A stretch of DNA of 64,000 bases from the NCBI GenBank assembly GCA_964016885.1, contig OZ024742.1, positions 357,802,001-357,866,000 of the forward strand, in the 5' to 3' direction. Origin of the DNA: Eledone cirrhosa. Its lineage: Eukaryota. Under the pieces are notes generated by a model, which was not told the origin of the DNA, did no database searches, and saw only the letters and a program-made list of their open reading frames with translations. Positions 43,345-64,000 of this stretch are shown here, piece after piece. A program made the translations under genes and the position numbers. Numbering within the stretch: the first letter of the stretch is position 1; every line of letters begins with the position of its first letter.

Positions 43345-43643
43345 TCATCATCATCATCATTTTACGTCCACTTTTCCCTGCTTGCAAGGTTGGGACGGGA
43401 ACTGATTCTGGCTTGATTTCTACAGTTGGATGCCCTTCCTAACACCAACCTTATTTACAGTTAGTGCTGGGTGCTTTTTTTTGCTGTGGCACCTCTATGA
43501 CCACTTTGCAGTGGAATAATATGGACCCTAGTCCCTATCATCTCATTTCTACAGGTGAGTAAACTGGAGCAATGTGAAATAAAGTGTCTTGTTCAAGGAA
43601 ACAACACATCACCCGCTCTGAGAATTGAACTCACGTTTCGATA
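43345..43643 (-). mobile_element. SINE copy (tRNA-type head remnant, (ATG)n tail), 5'-truncated
   Basis: The minus strand reads a B-box-like GAGTTCAATTC, then a core TTTCCTTGAACAAGACACTTTATTTCACATTGCTCCAG, and ends ...GGACGTAAAATGATGATGATG. A highly similar second copy lies at 59869-60141. Confidence 0.75.
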
Positions 43644-43680
43644 TACATACATATATATATATATACATAAATATATATAC

Positions 43681-43745
<65 letters not shown>

Positions 43746-43791
43746 TGTACGTATATCGAAAGGTGAGTTCAATTCTCAGAGTGGGTGATGT
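43606..43791. repeat. Inverted repeat (~44-bp arms) around a (TA)n tract
   Basis: 43607-43650 CATCACCCGCTCTGAGAATTGAACTCACGTTTCGATATAC is the reverse complement of 43747-43790, with about 3 mismatches. Confidence 0.9.
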
Positions 43792-46171: not shown

Positions 46172-46686
46172 TATATGATAAACACATAAGTGTTTGTACT
46201 GTAAATGACCAAGTTAGCTAGATTGAAAAATACTAATTAAAATAAATATAGTTTGCCTGTCTCGATTTAAAATAATAAATCAATAAAAACAAACCCATAT
46301 TGGCAATAACCGTGATACCTGGACAAATTTAAATTTCAAAATCCAAACATGTTCCGCAGACAAATTTAAATTTCAAGACCCAAATAAGTTTCGCAACGAT
46401 AGTAAAAAAAAGTGAAAGATTCCAATTTCTGTGGTCATCAACAGGTATCCAGAAAATTAGCATGTTTCACCTCGAAATATTTTTGGAGGTCTGGTTTACA
46501 CGCGCTAACTCACGTGGTTTTCCAGCTCCGAGCTATCCCCATACTCATGGTGCTAGAAATAACAGACTTTTTATATGGGATTAAAATATTTAGCTCAACA
46601 AAAGGAGCCGTAATACTATATTATATTTAGAGTTATAAACTCAAACAGTCCTTTACAATTAATTAGCTCAAAGAAAGAAGCATTTG

Positions 46687-46921
46687 TGAGTTTATAACTC
46701 TAAATATAATATAGTATTACGGCTCCTTTGTTGAGCTAAATTTATTTTAATTAGTATTTTTCAATCTAGCTAACTTGGTCATTTACAGTACAAACACTTA
46801 TGTGTTTATCATATATTAATTTATATTAACTTGTATGTCACGGCTAAGAAATGCTTCTTTCTTTGAGGTAATTAATAGTAAAGGACTGTTTGAGTTTATA
46901 ACTCTAAATATAATATAGTAT
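46687..46921. repeat. 204-bp unit with terminal direct repeat (~1.15 copies), plus inverted partial copies upstream
   Basis: TGAGTTTATAACTCTAAATATAATATAGTA occurs at 46687 and 46891. Inverted pieces lie at 46589-46685 and at 45276-45293 + 46172-46248 (split by the Helitron). Confidence 0.8.
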
Positions 46922-46929
46922 ATTTATAT

Positions 46930-47040
<111 letters not shown>

Positions 47041-47071
47041 TATATGGATATATATATATATATATATATGG

Positions 47072-47196
<125 letters not shown>

Positions 47197-47202
47197 TACA
47201 TA

Positions 47203-47246
<44 letters not shown>

Positions 47247-47256
47247 AATATATATG

Positions 47257-47341
<85 letters not shown>

Positions 47342-47410
47342 CCATATATATATCCATATATATATATATATCCATATATATATCCAATATATATATCCAT
47401 ATATATATAT

Positions 47411-47541
<131 letters not shown>

Positions 47542-47542
47542 C

Positions 47543-47699
47543 ATGAACCAAAGTATCGTCTTCCTGTCTTCCTCCGGTTGCAACGTTTTTTGAAATATCC
47601 AGTTCTGCGTTTACAGATTGACTTTGTTAGTTTCAGAAGATCCCGTTAAGGGTGAAAGCAGCGATTCTTTGTTTAAACTTTAATCTGTTATTTTAATAA

Positions 47700-47700
<1 letters not shown>
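47543..47700 (+). mobile_element. Short repeat family A, copy 2 (longer 5' part)
   Basis: Matches the reverse complement of 54553-54708. Flanked by (TA)n on both sides. Confidence 0.85.
47613..47688 (+). ncRNA. Type I hammerhead-like ribozyme with variant core (family A; other copies at 44606-44680 +, 54793-54868 +, 54565-54640 -)
   Basis: Layout: ACAGATTGA-ctttgtt-AGTTT (bulged stem I), core CAGAAGA, T-CCC-gttaa-GGG-T (stem II), GAAA, GCA...TGY (stem III), TT, then AAACT-TTAATCTGT (stem I partner). The core has U4A, and position 10.1/11.1 is U-U. Confidence 0.6.
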
Positions 47701-47732
<32 letters not shown>

Positions 47733-47747
47733 CATATATACATATAC

Positions 47748-47780
<33 letters not shown>

Positions 47781-47875
47781 CATATATACATATACATATA
47801 TATATATATATACATATATACATATATACATATATACATATACATATATATATATATATACATATATACATATAC

Positions 47876-47926
<51 letters not shown>

Positions 47927-47945
47927 TACATATACATATATATAC

Positions 47946-48110
<165 letters not shown>

Positions 48111-48133
48111 CATTTATATATATATATATATAT

Positions 48134-48251
48134 ATAGGAACCAGTAAGACCCCGACAGCTGAGCTCAAGCCGTTTCGACGGCTAATTCTGAGTCCAGAAT
48201 TAGCCGTCGAAACGGCTTGAGCTCAGCTGTCGGGGTCTTACTGGTTCCTAT
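48134..48251. repeat. Perfect palindrome, 57-bp arms with a 4-nt loop
   Basis: ATAGGAACCAGTAAGACCCCGACAGCTGAGCTCAAGCCGTTTCGACGGCTAATTCTG, then agtc, then its exact reverse complement. Related to the repeat family at 55302-55507. Confidence 0.97.
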
Positions 48252-48328
48252 TACCCACTCTACTACCTCAAGTATTGAGTACTTTGGTGCGTTATGGTTC
48301 ACCTGGTTCCTTACCACATTTCCTTCGT

Positions 48329-48370
<42 letters not shown>

Positions 48371-48371
48371 C

Positions 48372-48426
<55 letters not shown>

Positions 48427-48452
48427 CATGTATATATATGTATATATATATG

Positions 48453-48597
<145 letters not shown>

Positions 48598-48662
48598 GTA
48601 TATATGTATATATATATATATATATATATGTATATGTATATATGTATATATATATATGTATA

Positions 48663-48795
<133 letters not shown>

Positions 48796-49075
48796 GGATA
48801 TATATATATATGGATATATATTTATATATGGATATATATATATATGGATATATATATAATTAAGTTAAAGTGTACATCTACATATGTATACGGAAGTATT
48901 AGTATGCATATAAATACACACATGTATACATATGTACATGTACTCAGCTTTTCACTAGACACTTTACAGTGAGTGTCAGCTAGTCTGTATGTAACCACAC
49001 AGGCGGACCGGGTTTTAGAGTCATACGAGTTTTCAAGGAAACACATTTCCTCTATTCTCCAGAGGGCCAGACAGG

Positions 49076-49120
49076 AATACTGGACTAGTTTCGATGTTAT
49101 TACATCTCATCAGCAATATT
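49076..49120 (-). ncRNA. Type I minimal hammerhead ribozyme, copy 1
   Basis: Minus strand AATATTG CTGATGA GATGT aata ACATC GAAA CTAG TC^ CAGTATT. It has a full core, a 7-bp stem I, a 5-bp stem II, palindromic ACTAGT as stem III and a GUC cleavage triplet. Confidence 0.93.
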
Positions 49121-49544
49121 TACCCATCTTCCGGCTTCTCTGGAGAATTGTAAAAGCACATATCGTTATATGCTTTTTCTATGAAAATTAGTAGTGGGTA
49201 GACTAATTTGCATAGAACGTGAGTCATTGTACGCACCGGTTCAGCGGAAACGATAAAAACAAATAACGAAACGAAATTAAATTTCGTTTCGCTTCTAACT
49301 CACTTTTGTATGACTGACGCTTAAACAATTAAGTTAAAGTGTACATCTACATATGTATACGGAAGTATTAGTATGCATATAAATACACACATGTATACAT
49401 ATGTACATGTACTCAGCTTTTCACTAGACACTTTACAGTGAGTGTCAGCTAGTCTGTATGTAACCACACAGGCGGACCGGGTTTTAGAGTCATACGAGTT
49501 TTCAAGGAAACACATTTCCTCTATTCTCCAGAGGGCCAGACAGG

Positions 49545-49589
49545 AATATTGGACTAGTTTCGATGTTATTACATCTCATCAGCAATACT
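49545..49589 (-). ncRNA. Type I minimal hammerhead ribozyme, copy 2
   Basis: Minus strand AGTATTG CTGATGA GATGT aata ACATC GAAA CTAG TC^ CAATATT. Both differences from copy 1 in stem I keep pairing (A-U versus G-U). Confidence 0.93.
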
Positions 49590-49943
49590 TACCGATCTTC
49601 CGGCTTCTCTGGAGAATTGTAAAAGCACATATCGTTATATGCTTTTTCTATGAAAATTAGTAGTGGGTAGACTAATTTGCATAGAACGTGAGTCATTGTA
49701 CGCACCGGTTCAGCGGAAACGATAAAAACAAATAACGAAACGAAATTAAATTTCGTTTCGCTTCTAACTCACTTTTGTATGACTGACGCTTAAACAATTA
49801 AGTTAAAGTGTACATCTACATATGTATACGGAAGTATTAGTATGCATATAAATACACACATGTATACATATGTACATGTACTCAGCTTTTCACTAGACAC
49901 TTTACAGTGAAGCCGGAAGAGGGGTAAATATTGCTGATGAGAT

Positions 49944-50011
49944 ATACACACATACATACACACACACATACATATACATACACACATACACACACACACA
50001 TATATACACAT

Positions 50012-50068
<57 letters not shown>

Positions 50069-50107
50069 TATATATACATACACATACATCCAGATACACA
50101 CATACAT

Positions 50108-50138
<31 letters not shown>

Positions 50139-50141
50139 CAC

Positions 50142-50189
<48 letters not shown>

Positions 50190-50480
50190 CCACACATACA
50201 TACACACACACACACATATATATATACATACACACATACTAACATACACACACACACACATATATATACACACATACACACACACACACACACACGCATA
50301 TATATATATATATACACATACGCATACATCCAGATACCCACATACATACACACACACACACACACGCACACACAATACATACATCCACATGCACACACAT
50401 ACACACACACACACATATACACATACATACACCCACACGCAGAGAAATGGCCTTCAAATATATATATATATATATACATA
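49944..50480. repeat. Mixed (CA)n/(TA)n microsatellite (a similar CA-rich tract lies at 60630-61200)
   Basis: Read directly from the sequence. Confidence 0.95.
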
Positions 50481-50775: not shown

Positions 50776-52242
50776 CTATTGGGGTGATAACCCGTTTAGT
50801 TTGGGTTTAAATTTGTTAAGGAATAGATTTTCTTTGTTTATTCTTTGTTGTTGTGTGAACGAATCTGAGCACTTGTAGAAGGGGAAGATTTTAAAGTTGG
50901 GTAGTGTCATTCCTGCGCAGTTCGCAATATGGCTGCTCAAGGGGATTTTTCTTGTGTTAGCGTCCCGGATTTGTTGGCGGTGGATGGTCATTCTTTTGCG
51001 TAATGAGGTGCCCGTCTGTCCTATGTAGTTGTGTTTGCACCCACCGCAAGTTATTGCGTAAATCAAGTTCTCCGAGTTGCAGGTGAAATTGTTTTTTACT
51101 GTAAATGTTTGGCTATCTTTGAATGTAAATGTTTGTCCTTCAGTGAGGTAGAGGCACGTTCCACAGTTTGTTCTACCACATTTGGTAACTGTAGGGTTGA
51201 GGATTGGTTTGGGTATATTTGGTCCAGTGAGAATGCGTTTAAGTGATTTGGGTTGTCTTTTACTTTTAAGGATCTTGTGTGTTTCAAGAATAGACTTCAT
51301 TTTTACATCTTTAAGTAGGATGGGGAGGTTTTTGTGTAGGTGATCAAACATTTCGGTATTTCTGGGGTTGAAAGTGGATACATATGGCAGGGTGTTGAGT
51401 GTGGTTTTCTGTTTTGGATTGTTAAGTTGATGGGGATTTAGGTGTTTTGCCCTGTCTATTCCATTGTTGATTATTTCAAGTGGAAAGGCTCTTAAGATAA
51501 GGGTGTCTTTTAGTTCCTTTAGTCTTTGCTCCCGTTTAGGTGGATCTGATACTATGGTACATATACGTTTGGCCAAATTGTAAGGAATGTTAAGTTTTGT
51601 ATGTTTTGGGTGACTTGATGTGAAAAAGAGGTATTGCTTGGAATCTGTGGGTTTATAGAATATATCTGTATCTAATTTCCCGTCTATTACAGAGATGAGA
51701 ATATCCAAGAAGGCTAATTCCTTAGGATTGGATTCCATTGTGAATTGTATGTTATTATCTATGTTGTTTATCATGTTTTTAAACGTAGTAAGTGAGTTCA
51801 TGTCTTCTTGCCATAGGATAAAGCAGTCGTCTAGATATCTTTTCCAATTGGCTTTGAGGTGTGTGTGGAAAGAGTCTCCAAATAAGAGAAGGGACTGACT
51901 GTATATTTGTTGTTCATGGAATCCCATGACTAGGTTGGCATATGTGGGTGCTACTTTCGTGCCCATTGCCGTACCTGATACTTGTCTGTATGTTGAACCA
52001 TTGAATGTGAAGTAGTTTTTTTGTAGGATAAAGCGGAGTCCGTCAGTGATAAAATCTGTGTTGATGCGTGTCGGTATTTCTGATGGGTGTGTGTTAAGCC
52101 AGTATTGGACTGCTGTTATTCCATAGTTGTGAGGTATGTTTGTGTAGAGGTTTATTACGTCAAAGGAGACAAGAATTGTATTTGCACTTACTGTTTTAGG
52201 GAGGTGTTTCAGCATGTCAAGGTCATATAACTTCTCATTCAC
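50776..52242 (-). CDS. Penelope-like retroelement (Neptune-type) reverse transcriptase + GIY-YIG endonuclease, 5'-truncated
   Basis: 488-aa stop-free frame. RT motifs LVSFDVINLYTNIP, YRQVSGTAMGTKVAPTYANL, WKRYLDDCFILW, FTME and LAFLDI. PLE thumb FYKPTD..YL.F.S.HP. Cys linker CGRTNCGTC. GIY-YIG motifs NLIYAITCGGCKHNYIGQT...RMTIH...H...KE...LN. The N-terminal domain and first RT motifs are missing, so the annotated GTG start is not the real start. Confidence 0.95.
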   Translation of the reverse strand: MNEKLYDLDMLKHLPKTVSANTILVSFDVINLYTNIPHNYGITAVQYWLNTHPSEIPTRINTDFITDGLRFILQKNYFTFNGSTYRQVSGTAMGTKVAPTYANLVMGFHEQQIYSQSLLLFGDSFHTHLKANWKRYLDDCFILWQEDMNSLTTFKNMINNIDNNIQFTMESNPKELAFLDILISVIDGKLDTDIFYKPTDSKQYLFFTSSHPKHTKLNIPYNLAKRICTIVSDPPKREQRLKELKDTLILRAFPLEIINNGIDRAKHLNPHQLNNPKQKTTLNTLPYVSTFNPRNTEMFDHLHKNLPILLKDVKMKSILETHKILKSKRQPKSLKRILTGPNIPKPILNPTVTKCGRTNCGTCLYLTEGQTFTFKDSQTFTVKNNFTCNSENLIYAITCGGCKHNYIGQTGTSLRKRMTIHRQQIRDANTRKIPLSSHIANCAGMTLPNFKIFPFYKCSDSFTQQQRINKENLFLNKFKPKLNGLSPQ

Positions 52243-52383
52243 TACCAGAAAGGGACACAGCAGTCAACCTGTTGTTGCTACCTAGATGAAAACTGCTATG
52301 AAATCCCACAATGAATTTTATACTTGAATTTTCAAGTCTCAAATTTTAACCCTTCGTATTATTAATTTTTCTTAATATTAATC

Positions 52384-52432
52384 AACATTTGAAAAGATGG
52401 CTTTTGCAGACCCATCGAAACCGGGCATTTTT
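52384..52432 (+). ncRNA. Decayed minimal hammerhead with a U3-A8 core
   Basis: TTGAAAA GATGG...CCATC GAAA CCGG GC. Stem II and the palindromic CCGG are intact. U16.1 is replaced by G and stem I is imperfect. Confidence 0.45.
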
Positions 52433-54260: not shown

Positions 54261-54320
54261 CTTTACTTGCTCTGATGAGTCCCTATTAATGGGACAAAAC
54301 AATGTCGTCTAATAAAGACT
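54261..54320 (+). ncRNA. Decayed type I minimal hammerhead
   Basis: CTGATGA GTCCC tattaat GGGAC AAAAC aat GTC. Stem II is a perfect 5 bp. GAAA has become AAAA, consistent with CpG decay. AATAAA follows. Confidence 0.6.
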
Positions 54321-54549: not shown

Positions 54550-54883
54550 ATATTTATTAAAATAACAGATTAAAGTTTAAGCAAAGAATCGCTGCTTTCA
54601 CCCTTAACGGGATCTTCTGAAACATACAAAGTCAATCTGTGAACGCAGAAGTGAATATTTAAAAAAAACGTTGCAACCGGAGGAAGGCAGGAAGACGATA
54701 CTTTGGTTTGTGGAAACATTCCCTGGCAAAGAGCGGGAAAAAACGAATATAATACGATTGCAACATTTTTTTAAATATTCACTTCTGCGTTCACAGATTG
54801 ACTTTGTTAGTTTCAGAAGATCCCGTTAAAGGTGAAAGCAGCGATTCTTTGCTTAAACTTTAATCTGTTATTTTAATAAATAT
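54550..54883. repeat. Inverted pair of family A copies (arms 54550-54676 and 54758-54883)
   Basis: The arms are reverse complements with a few substitutions. Confidence 0.92.
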
Positions 54884-54961: not shown

Positions 54962-55385
54962 ATATTGTTACACTTTTGCAGGATTATGCTGCCAATAAAA
55001 ACACACACATCTGTTGGTTTTTACTTCAATTTATTATAAACTTCTGGTCGGTTGGTTCGATAACCAGATGGTTATTTAAATATCGTCAAAGCTCTTTCAT
55101 CACACATTCAGTGAAATAGAAACCCAGACACTGAGGTCATAGAATGTGTGATGAAAGAGCTTTGACAATATTTAAACAACCGTCCTGTTTTATGAACCAA
55201 CCAACCAAATGGAAATTTATAATAAATTGAAGAGAAATCCAACAGGTGCGTGTGTTTTTATTGGCAGCATGACCCTCCCAAAGTATAACAATATATATAT
55301 AACGAAGGAAGTGTGGTACGGAACCAGTTCAGACCTAGCTGTCGAAACGGCCGGAGCTCAGCTGTCGGGGTCTTGACTCTTTTCT

Positions 55386-55421
<36 letters not shown>

Positions 55422-55658
55422 GGAAAAGAGTCAAGACCCCGACAGCTGAGCTCTGGCCGTTTCGACAGCTAGGTCTTAACTGGTTCCGTACCACACTTCC
55501 TTCGTTTTATATATATTGTTATACTTTGGGAGGGTCATGCTGCCAATAAAAACACACGCACCTGTTGGATTTCTCTTCAATTTATTATAAATTTCCATTT
55601 GGTTGGTTGGTTCATAAAACAGGACGGTTGTTTAAATATTGTCAAAGCTCTTTCATCA
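54962..55658. repeat. Chain of inverted repeats: 236-bp arms 55149-55384 and 55423-55658 around (TA)n, plus a diverged third copy at 54962-55109
   Basis: Direct reverse-complement match. The mirror-image ORFs 55258-55494(-) and 55313-55549(+) are nearly identical. Confidence 0.95.
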
Positions 55659-57443: not shown

Positions 57444-58211
57444 AGCAGACAAGTCTGTGGGGCTGTCTTTCACACCAGTCAGCTCACTGGGGCTGTATCT
57501 CACAGCAGACAGTGCTGTAGGGCTGTATCTCACAGCAGACAGACCTGTAGGGTTGTATCTCACAGCAGATAGACCTCTAGGGCTGTGTCTCACAGCAGAC
57601 AGTCCTGTAGGGCTGTATCTCACAGCAGACAGTCCTATAGAGCTGTATATCACAGCAGACAGACCTGTAGGGCTGTATCTCACAGCAGACAGTCCTATAG
57701 GGCTGTATCTCACAGCAGACAGACCTGTAGGGCTGTATCTCACAGCAGATAGACCTTTCGGGCTGTATCTCACAGCAGATATACCTCTAGGGCTGTATCT
57801 CACAGCAGACAGTCTTGTAGGGCTGTATCTCACAGCAGACATCCTATAGGGCTGTATCTCACAGCAGACAGACCTGTAGGGCTGTATCTCACAGCAGATA
57901 GACCTGTAGGGTTGTATCTCACAGCAAATAGGCCTGTATCTCACAGCAGATATACCTCTAGGGCTGTATCTCACAGCAGACAGTCTTGTAGGGCTGTATC
58001 TCACAGCAGACAGTCCTATAGGGCTGTATCTCACAGCAGACAGATCTGTAGGGCTGTATCTCACAGCAGACAGTCCTATAGGGCTGTATCTCACAGCAGA
58101 CAGACCTGTAGGGTTGTATCTCACAGCAGACAGTCTTGTAGGGTTGTATCTCACAGCAGACAGTCCTGTAGGGCTGGTTCGCACAGCAGACAGCTCAGTG
58201 GGGCTGTATCT
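57444..58211. repeat. 30-bp minisatellite (~25 copies)
   Basis: GGGCTGTATCTCACAGCAGACAG(A/T)CCTGTA in tandem. It explains the SAVRYSPTGL repeat ORF. Confidence 0.97.
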
Positions 58212-59868: not shown

Positions 59869-60141
59869 TTTCATTTCATCATTCATTTCATTTCATTTTA
59901 CGTCCGCTTTTCCCTGATTGCAAGATTGGGACGGGAACTGATTCTGGCTTGATTCTACAGCTGGATGCCCTTCCTAACACCAACTTCATTTACAGTGAGT
60001 GCTGGGTGCTTTTTTGCCGTGGCACCTCCACGACCACTTGCAGTGGAATGATATGGACCCCAGTCCCTATTATCTCATTTCTACAGCTGAGTAAACTGGA
60101 GCAATGTGAAATAAAATGTCTTGCTCAAGGAAACAACACAT
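59869..60141 (-). mobile_element. SINE copy 2, 5'-truncated, with a terminal fold-back
   Basis: Colinear with 43360-43610. 60092-60123 is repeated in inverted orientation at 60142-60173, immediately before (TA)n. Confidence 0.78.
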
Positions 60142-60171
60142 CAAGACACTTTATTTCACATTGCTCCAGTT

Positions 60172-62023: not shown

Positions 62024-63631
<1,608 letters not shown>

Positions 63632-63834: not shown

Positions 63835-64000
63835 ACCACATATGGAATCTTCACGCAAAGACACATAATGGGCGTTCATAGTATTACAGTAAATAGTATG
63901 CGCAGACGGTACATAGAAAATGCGTGCAGAATATATATAAAAAAAAGAAAATACTATGAACGTCCATTATGTGGGTTTGCGTGAAGGTTTCACACGTGGT
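63835..64000. repeat. Inverted repeat with 51-bp or longer arms (63835-63885 and 63950-64000), running off the window edge
   Basis: ACCACATATGGAATCTTCACGCAAAGACACATAATGGGCGTTCATAGTATT matches the reverse complement of the last 51 bases with about 7 mismatches. Confidence 0.85.

Follow-up and report, generated by a model that had tools for sequence, protein, structure and literature searches.

A 469-bp tandem array with two type I hammerhead ribozymes in Eledone cirrhosa, a likely insertion of an animal non-LTR retrozyme

Retrozymes of metazoans give rise to circular RNAs, which have been shown in coral, mussel and axolotl (PMC7229834). Further traits that define the non-LTR class are dispersal in many genomic copies, the lack of LTR, PBS and PPT, and target-site duplications that exceed 4 bp where they occur. 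In a recent preprint, 20 of 31 vertebrate genomes are reported to contain retrozymes, the units of which measure 51-972 bp; the same preprint finds that one of nine Xenopus dimers was cleaved, while the other eight were not (Li, Clavereau and Pollet 2026, bioRxiv 10.64898/2026.07.22.740005). The axolotl hammerhead HHR_Amex1 is described as cleaving poorly on its own and better in dimers (PMC7229834). The minimal hammerheads (min-HHRs) of metazoan Penelope-like elements (PLEs) are described with a helix II of 7-8 bp and an unpaired 5' base, a helix I of 4-5 bp, and a poorly defined loop 1 (PMC4209133). Insertions of the PLEs themselves are reported to form partial tandems, many of which carry an inverted 5' piece, and to favour microsatellites (PMC8557442). 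According to work on an Anolis PLE, the element cuts AT-rich DNA, extends both strands, and starts reverse transcription at two points 30-40 nt apart (PMC11167929). In the giant squid, the genome annotation contains 235 hammerhead loci.

The DNA analysed here, referred to as the window, is a stretch of 64 kb from Eledone cirrhosa. It contains one array of a 469-bp unit, detected by Tandem Repeats Finder at 48858-49910 with a period of 469, 2.2 copies and 99% matches. The initial annotation had placed its end at 49943. The period and the copy number stand, but the direct repeat stops at 49910, and the last 33 nt of that interval are an inverted piece. The array and its surroundings comprise the following features.

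46908..48857, no strand: (TA)n-rich left flank, no target-site duplication readable
48858..49910, minus strand: tandem array of 2.245 units of 469 bp, non-coding, 37.1% GC
49545..49589, minus strand: upstream type I hammerhead (B), C3 at 49582, predicted cut at 49552/49551
49076..49120, minus strand: downstream type I hammerhead (A), C3 at 49113, predicted cut at 49083/49082
49083..49551, minus strand: predicted monomer of 469 nt, delimited by the two cuts, with ends that pair with each other as a perfect 7-bp helix I
49054..49148, minus strand: 11-bp clamp (49054-49064 with 49138-49148), which closes the extended helix I
49267..49291, no strand: 25-nt dyad with a 12-bp stem, second copy at 49736-49760
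49911..49943, plus strand: inverted piece of 33 nt, identical at 32 positions to the 5' arm and core of hammerhead A (49104-49136)
49946..50438, no strand: (AC/AT)n right flank, a microsatellite

The copies agree at 581 of the 584 compared positions, and all 115 positions that are covered by three passes of the array are identical. The three differences (49080/49549, 49119/49588 and 49125/49594) all lie in ribozyme arms, the first in the 3' arm of hammerhead A and the other two in the 5' arm of hammerhead B. It had been proposed that two stem I substitutions between the copies preserve pairing. Two of the differences (49080/49549 and 49119/49588) indeed retain pairing as G-U, but the third, 49125/49594, removes one of the distal pairs of stem I from the copy at 49545-49600. 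The differences cluster within 46 nt, which in a simulation with random placement has a probability of P 0.016. On the RNA strand, two of the three read as A-to-G changes, and both have an AAU context in helix I.

The layout of the array is tandem and not LTR-like. No stop-to-stop frame of 150 aa lies inside it, and two microsatellite frames overlap its ends. A tblastn comparison of 120 PLE homologues with the array gave no matches, and the unit holds no ORF remnant. The outer ends of the array correspond to positions 225 and 448 of the monomer and are thus 223 nt apart on the unit. With microsatellites on both sides, a target-site duplication is unreadable.

The minus strand contains two complete hammerhead cores, the C17 residues of which are at 49552 and 49083. 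These positions agree with the cleavage sites (49552/49551 and 49083/49082) and the monomer (49083-49551) that were predicted in the initial annotation. Rfam model HH9 aligns in full to both copies, at 49530-49600 with 32.4 bits (E 5.8e-06) and at 49061-49131 with 30.6 bits (E 2.1e-05), in each case below the gathering score of 52; at the gathering level, an Rfam scan of the whole window yields nothing that reaches threshold. A strict hammerhead descriptor found no match in 20,000 dinucleotide shuffles of the unit. In the array hammerheads, helix I consists of 7 bp with a bulged extension, and helix II of 4-5 bp (4 in the HH9 alignment) with a 6-nt loop and no extra base. Helix III has at most one pair and is capped by a palindromic CUAG loop. 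Judged by its sequence, the ribozyme is a canonical metazoan type I hammerhead of the newt/axolotl (HHR_Amex1) type. The earlier description of one minimal hammerhead per unit was correct in that there are two complete cores, but the minimal label does not apply, as the sizes of helices I and II are canonical and the ribozyme aligns to HH9. Identity with the min-HHR of PLEs is ruled out by the 4-5 bp of helix II and by the 7 bp and extension of helix I. A plant LTR retrozyme, with type III hammerheads in two LTRs, is likewise ruled out by the type I topology and the tandem units.

Other parts of the window contain hammerhead-like sequences as well. Positions 1-43168 are occupied by a 37-bp satellite of about 1167 copies with 88% matches and free of indels, in which six hammerhead-like matches were rejected for their mismatched core. 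Degenerate motifs unrelated to the array are found at 54272-54306 (plus strand) and 55924-55850 (minus strand), the latter with a palindromic helix III and a long helix II. At about 52390-52430 (plus strand), just 5' of the PLE frame described below, there may be a decayed, inverted hammerhead, which was seen by eye and missed by the relaxed scan. Rfam matches to miRNA families on AT-rich hairpins are far below gathering and were taken as chance. The window also contains a 30-bp minisatellite at 57444-58211 (about 26 copies).

The unit is strongly predicted to fold, as had been noted from the sequence together with the 11-bp clamp and the 25-nt dyad, both of which were recovered. The linear monomer reaches -159.3 kcal/mol (z -10.2, with none of 100 shuffles as good). 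The circular fold, which the initial annotation had suggested as a check, reaches -155.0 kcal/mol (z -9.6 against 40 shuffles) with 69% of the bases paired. In the circular monomer, helices I and II have probabilities of 0.6-1.0, and helix III has a probability of 0.

The palindromic ACTAGT of stem III had been taken to suit a double-hammerhead fold, and an isolated dimer model bears this out. For the genomic dimer (49040-49620), the double hammerhead has -196.9 kcal/mol, compared to -183.5 for two single hammerheads and -201.2 for the free minimum (MFE). The double fold is thus better than the two singles by 13.4 kcal/mol, and the same preference is seen in a perfect-tandem control. Without constraints, the genomic dimer forms the 6-bp palindromic helix in its MFE (P 0.39), together with a single swapped helix I (P 0.74). 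When the direct part of the array is folded in its full length of 1053 nt, the MFE is 9.4 kcal/mol better than the double fold and 15.1 better than the singles, so that the double fold has an advantage over the singles of about 6 kcal/mol; in the ensembles of this direct part and of the perfect-tandem control, in which the double fold lies 1.4 kcal/mol above the MFE, the palindromic helix has a probability of 0.0. These folding models omit tertiary contacts, magnesium and co-transcriptional folding. Within these terms, the models support the behaviour that has been proposed for this type of ribozyme in the literature, in which cutting depends on dimers and the circle is protected.

The two predicted cuts may not be served equally well. 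In the models, the 5' arm of the upstream ribozyme folds onto its own core, and the probability of the swapped helix required for cutting at 49083/49082 is 0.04, compared to 0.30 in the control. We attribute the predicted weakening mainly to the base at 49594, which would lengthen the hairpin of the 5' arm.

The inverted piece adds a further complication. It joins the array via a microhomology of 5 out of 6 positions at 49905-49910, and it lies at the 5' end of the minus-strand RNA, where it is antisense to the ribozyme in a read-through transcript. Including the piece in the model leaves core A fully paired and raises the gap between the double fold and the MFE to 25.7 kcal/mol. In read-through RNA from the right flank, the inverted piece would therefore be expected to block one ribozyme, and, since it pairs core A completely, release of a monomer from the array copy would need an internal start of transcription. 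With regard to the exact release of 49083-49551 that was expected from the sequence, the cut sites are as proposed, but in the models both the third substitution and the inverted piece count against the active fold, and eight of the nine Xenopus dimers tested by Li et al. remained uncut. It is doubtful that the array copy itself yields a circle. At both diagnostic sites, the inverted piece carries the base of copy A, so that the monomer ends alternate in the order A/B/A/B.

Inversions next to microsatellites are common in the window. Outside the array, 7 of 13 inverted pairs touch masked microsatellite, and the inverted piece is therefore not a specific mark of a PLE. A repeat without a ribozyme, at 60100-60165, has a fold-back piece beside (TA)n in the same layout as the array. 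Fold-back duplications are altogether dense, involve several unrelated repeats and in many cases touch (TA)n (43606-43791, 46580-46751, 48137-48248, 54561-54872, 55155-55652, 60100-60165, 62029-63555 and 63835-64000). They could be PLE-type insertions, products of fold-back repair, or effects of assembly.

A Penelope-like element is found nearby, 0.8 kb from the array and on the same strand.

50776..52263, minus strand: 5'-truncated Penelope-like element, unbroken frame of 495 codons with reverse transcriptase (RT), CX4CX2C linker and GIY-YIG

The RT match of this frame is below the Pfam cut-off. The frame is 60% identical to its best homologue, a protein of 758 residues, and begins at residue 261 of it, which identifies the element as 5'-truncated. 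That the frame is unbroken suggests a young PLE family. A CX2-5CxxC linker is described for Neptune and Nematis elements (PMC8557442), and by its linker the frame is of the Neptune/Nematis type. Among the at least 120 homologues listed, the named eukaryote ones are all molluscan (Argonauta, Pinctada, Saccostrea and Mytilus), and the other named ones come from assemblies of bivalve gill symbionts. On their own, these homologues make a molluscan host likely, perhaps a cephalopod. Neither at the DNA nor at the protein level was the array found to resemble this PLE, and the PLE is probably separate from it. The PLE represents a candidate for the class of element that may have mobilised the array, and mobilisation by a PLE would be expected by analogy with the retrozyme class.

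The array resembles metazoan non-LTR retrozymes, as they are described, in its tandem, non-coding units that each contain a single type I hammerhead, in a low GC content, in a predicted circle that is highly self-paired, and in co-occurrence with PLEs. Its units of a few hundred bp are arranged head to tail, and at least two consecutive ones contain a complete type I hammerhead. The unit is non-coding, with a GC content below 50%, and the monomer is predicted to form a highly self-paired circle in which the hammerhead is accessible. At 469 nt, the unit is longer than the circles of about 170-400 nt reported in PMC7229834, but lies inside the range of 51-972 bp given in the 2026 preprint. Mytilus ribozymes are described as lacking most of the loop 1/loop 2 contact residues, whereas the array ribozyme aligns to HH9 across them. 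The array is known here from its sequence and from folding models.

Within the class, the array has the features of the newt/HHR_Amex1 type, namely a helix I with a bulged extension, a helix II of 4 bp, and a helix III of one pair with a palindromic loop. This type is defined by a helix I of about 6 bp that continues past a bulge, a looped helix II of 4 bp, and a helix III of 1-2 bp under a palindromic loop (PMC7229834, PMC4209133). With newt satellite 2 and HHR_Amex1 (PMC7229834, PMC4209133) it shares the one-pair helix III, the palindromic tetraloop, the canonical helices I and II, and the predicted dependence of cleavage on dimers; it differs from them in its invertebrate host and in the unit length of 469 bp instead of about 330 bp. 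The minimal hammerheads of PLE pseudo-LTRs are similar with respect to the palindromic helix III region and the predicted dimeric activity (PMC4209133), but their long helix II (7-8 bp) and short helix I (4-5 bp) are absent from the array. Insertions of Neptune-type PLEs are similar in the partial tandem, the inverted piece at the 5' end, the microsatellite or AT-rich target and the lack of a readable target-site duplication (PMC8557442, PMC11167929). In contrast to these elements, the array is non-coding, and its outer ends are 223 nt and not 30-40 nt apart.

Sequences related to the unit were also sought outside the window. Among 24 sequencing runs listed, nine share at least 0.2 of the 45 words that were sampled from the unit. 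They come from six studies and carry six organism labels, or five of each when the possible source is excluded; eleven further rows with a share below 0.2 are omitted from this count. The word sharing suggests a retrozyme family that is common to relatives. Pattern scans gave two matching loci in metagenomes and two in viruses, and none in prokaryote genomes. The four loci were rejected as relatives of the unit, as they share only the core and none is in a tandem repeat. Each is a solitary hammerhead-like motif that shares the palindromic helix III; two lie in metagenome contigs (L001 480-512, minus strand; L002 292-328, plus strand) and two in viral contigs (L003 and L004, 1201-1233, plus strand).

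In view of these similarities, the array is very likely a metazoan non-LTR retrozyme, and thus belongs to a class that is already described. The reading that we prefer is that it is a recent insertion of such an animal retrozyme, copied into a TA microsatellite by PLE enzymes, and we consider this likely. In the folding models, a lone ribozyme is nearly devoid of helix III. In a multimer, successive copies could swap the arms of helix I and pair ACUAGU with ACUAGU. The multimer would then cut itself, and the resulting 469-nt monomer or circle would be largely protected. By comparison with the known class, a host ligase of the RtcB type may close the cut monomer, and a PLE reverse transcriptase may copy a template of more than unit length, across uncut ribozyme sites. 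The copied stretch spans two cut sites, so that its synthesis in a single round of reverse transcription would have required either a circle or an uncut multimer as template. The non-integer copy number had been read as a trace of reverse transcription around a circle. It is compatible with a circular template, but also with an uncut multimer or a local duplication. The divergent RT-PCR that had been suggested as a test for the circle is not diagnostic alone, because tandem transcripts carry the same junction.

With respect to the template, origin of the array from a circle has a nearly even chance in our estimation. The identity of the copies at 581 of 584 positions fits repeated passes round one circle, but a single circular template combined with random mutation does not explain the clustering of the three differences well. 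Alternatively, and with a lower though still appreciable probability, the array may have been reverse-transcribed from an uncut linear multimer or a dimer circle, either of them made up of slightly different units, in which case the ribozyme was not involved in the insertion. This would be consistent with the clustering of the three differences around the cut, all within helix I, and with the A/B/A/B alternation of monomer ends that we infer from four sites. The clustered differences and the alternation hint at a mixed multimer or at editing, at very few sites. However, the other 581 positions are identical, including all those covered by three passes, as would be the case for a circle, and three sites are so few that mutation after insertion suffices for them at a level of about 2%. 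Later duplication as DNA is a rather unlikely origin of the array. In its complete form, which we regard as improbable, this explanation holds that a single fragment with a hammerhead, such as part of a PLE pseudo-LTR, was inserted and then duplicated locally as an inert relic, with no RNA circle, and that the inverted piece arose by repair at the microsatellite. Li et al. indeed propose local tandem amplification of units derived from pseudo-LTRs, the fold-back pieces beside (TA)n also occur in repeats without ribozymes (e.g. at 60100-60165), and with arbitrary ends any array has a non-integer count. The inert relic is difficult to reconcile with the exceptional predicted structure of the whole unit, beyond the ribozyme (z of about -10), with a ribozyme that is canonical and not of the PLE min-type, and with a unit free of ORF remnants.

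The proximity of the PLE at 50776-52263, on the same strand and 0.8 kb away, raises the question whether the array is its downstream pseudo-LTR, all the more since type I hammerheads occur in tandem pseudo-LTRs of PLEs. This is very improbable. Unrelated sequence of about 290 nt lies between the two, in addition to roughly 500 nt of microsatellite and the inverted piece, the array has no similarity to the PLE or its homologues, and an ATG at the start of helix II is directly followed by stops. The long microsatellite flanks could also have led an assembler to duplicate one unit, but an assembly artefact is hardly credible in view of the three differences between the copies, two of which retain pairing, and of a layout that is typical of the retrozyme class.

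For newt satellite 2, an internal promoter of the snRNA type is reported (cited in PMC2220036), of which the array unit contains only weak motif echoes.

49206..49213, minus strand: octamer motif (DSE-type, motif according to PMC1790723), one exact match per unit
49430-49448, minus strand: weak PSE-like motif, in each unit

Chance alone yields the octamer in 397 of 20,000 shuffles. The PSE-like motif matches the human U6 PSE at 13 of 19 positions, a score attained by 300 of 3000 shuffles and not significant; its match to a vertebrate consensus is attained by 592 of 20,000 shuffles, and by eye no TATA is evident 18-22 nt downstream of it. The octamer is a weak lead to an internal promoter, noticed post hoc and not significant alone. 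Heavy RNA editing is known in cephalopods. Together with the clustered copy differences, two of which are A-to-G, these points would allow for a cephalopod retrozyme family with an internal promoter of the snRNA type, the multimeric RNA of which is A-to-I edited in helix I before reverse transcription. This is a long shot, but if it were true, the genome would record the editing of a ribozyme.

A description of a cephalopod retrozyme was not found among the papers listed by literature searches or in the main text of PMC7229834, the supplements of which may list cases. To specialists, a retrozyme in a cephalopod would be unsurprising, given the hammerhead loci of the giant squid. The array adds to the described class a member that is structurally clean and apparently young. 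It may also serve as a test case, since the weak helix III predicts that dimers cut, and that the monomer or circle is stable. For testing the prediction of dimer cutting, the locus itself offers natural variants and a built-in antisense arm.
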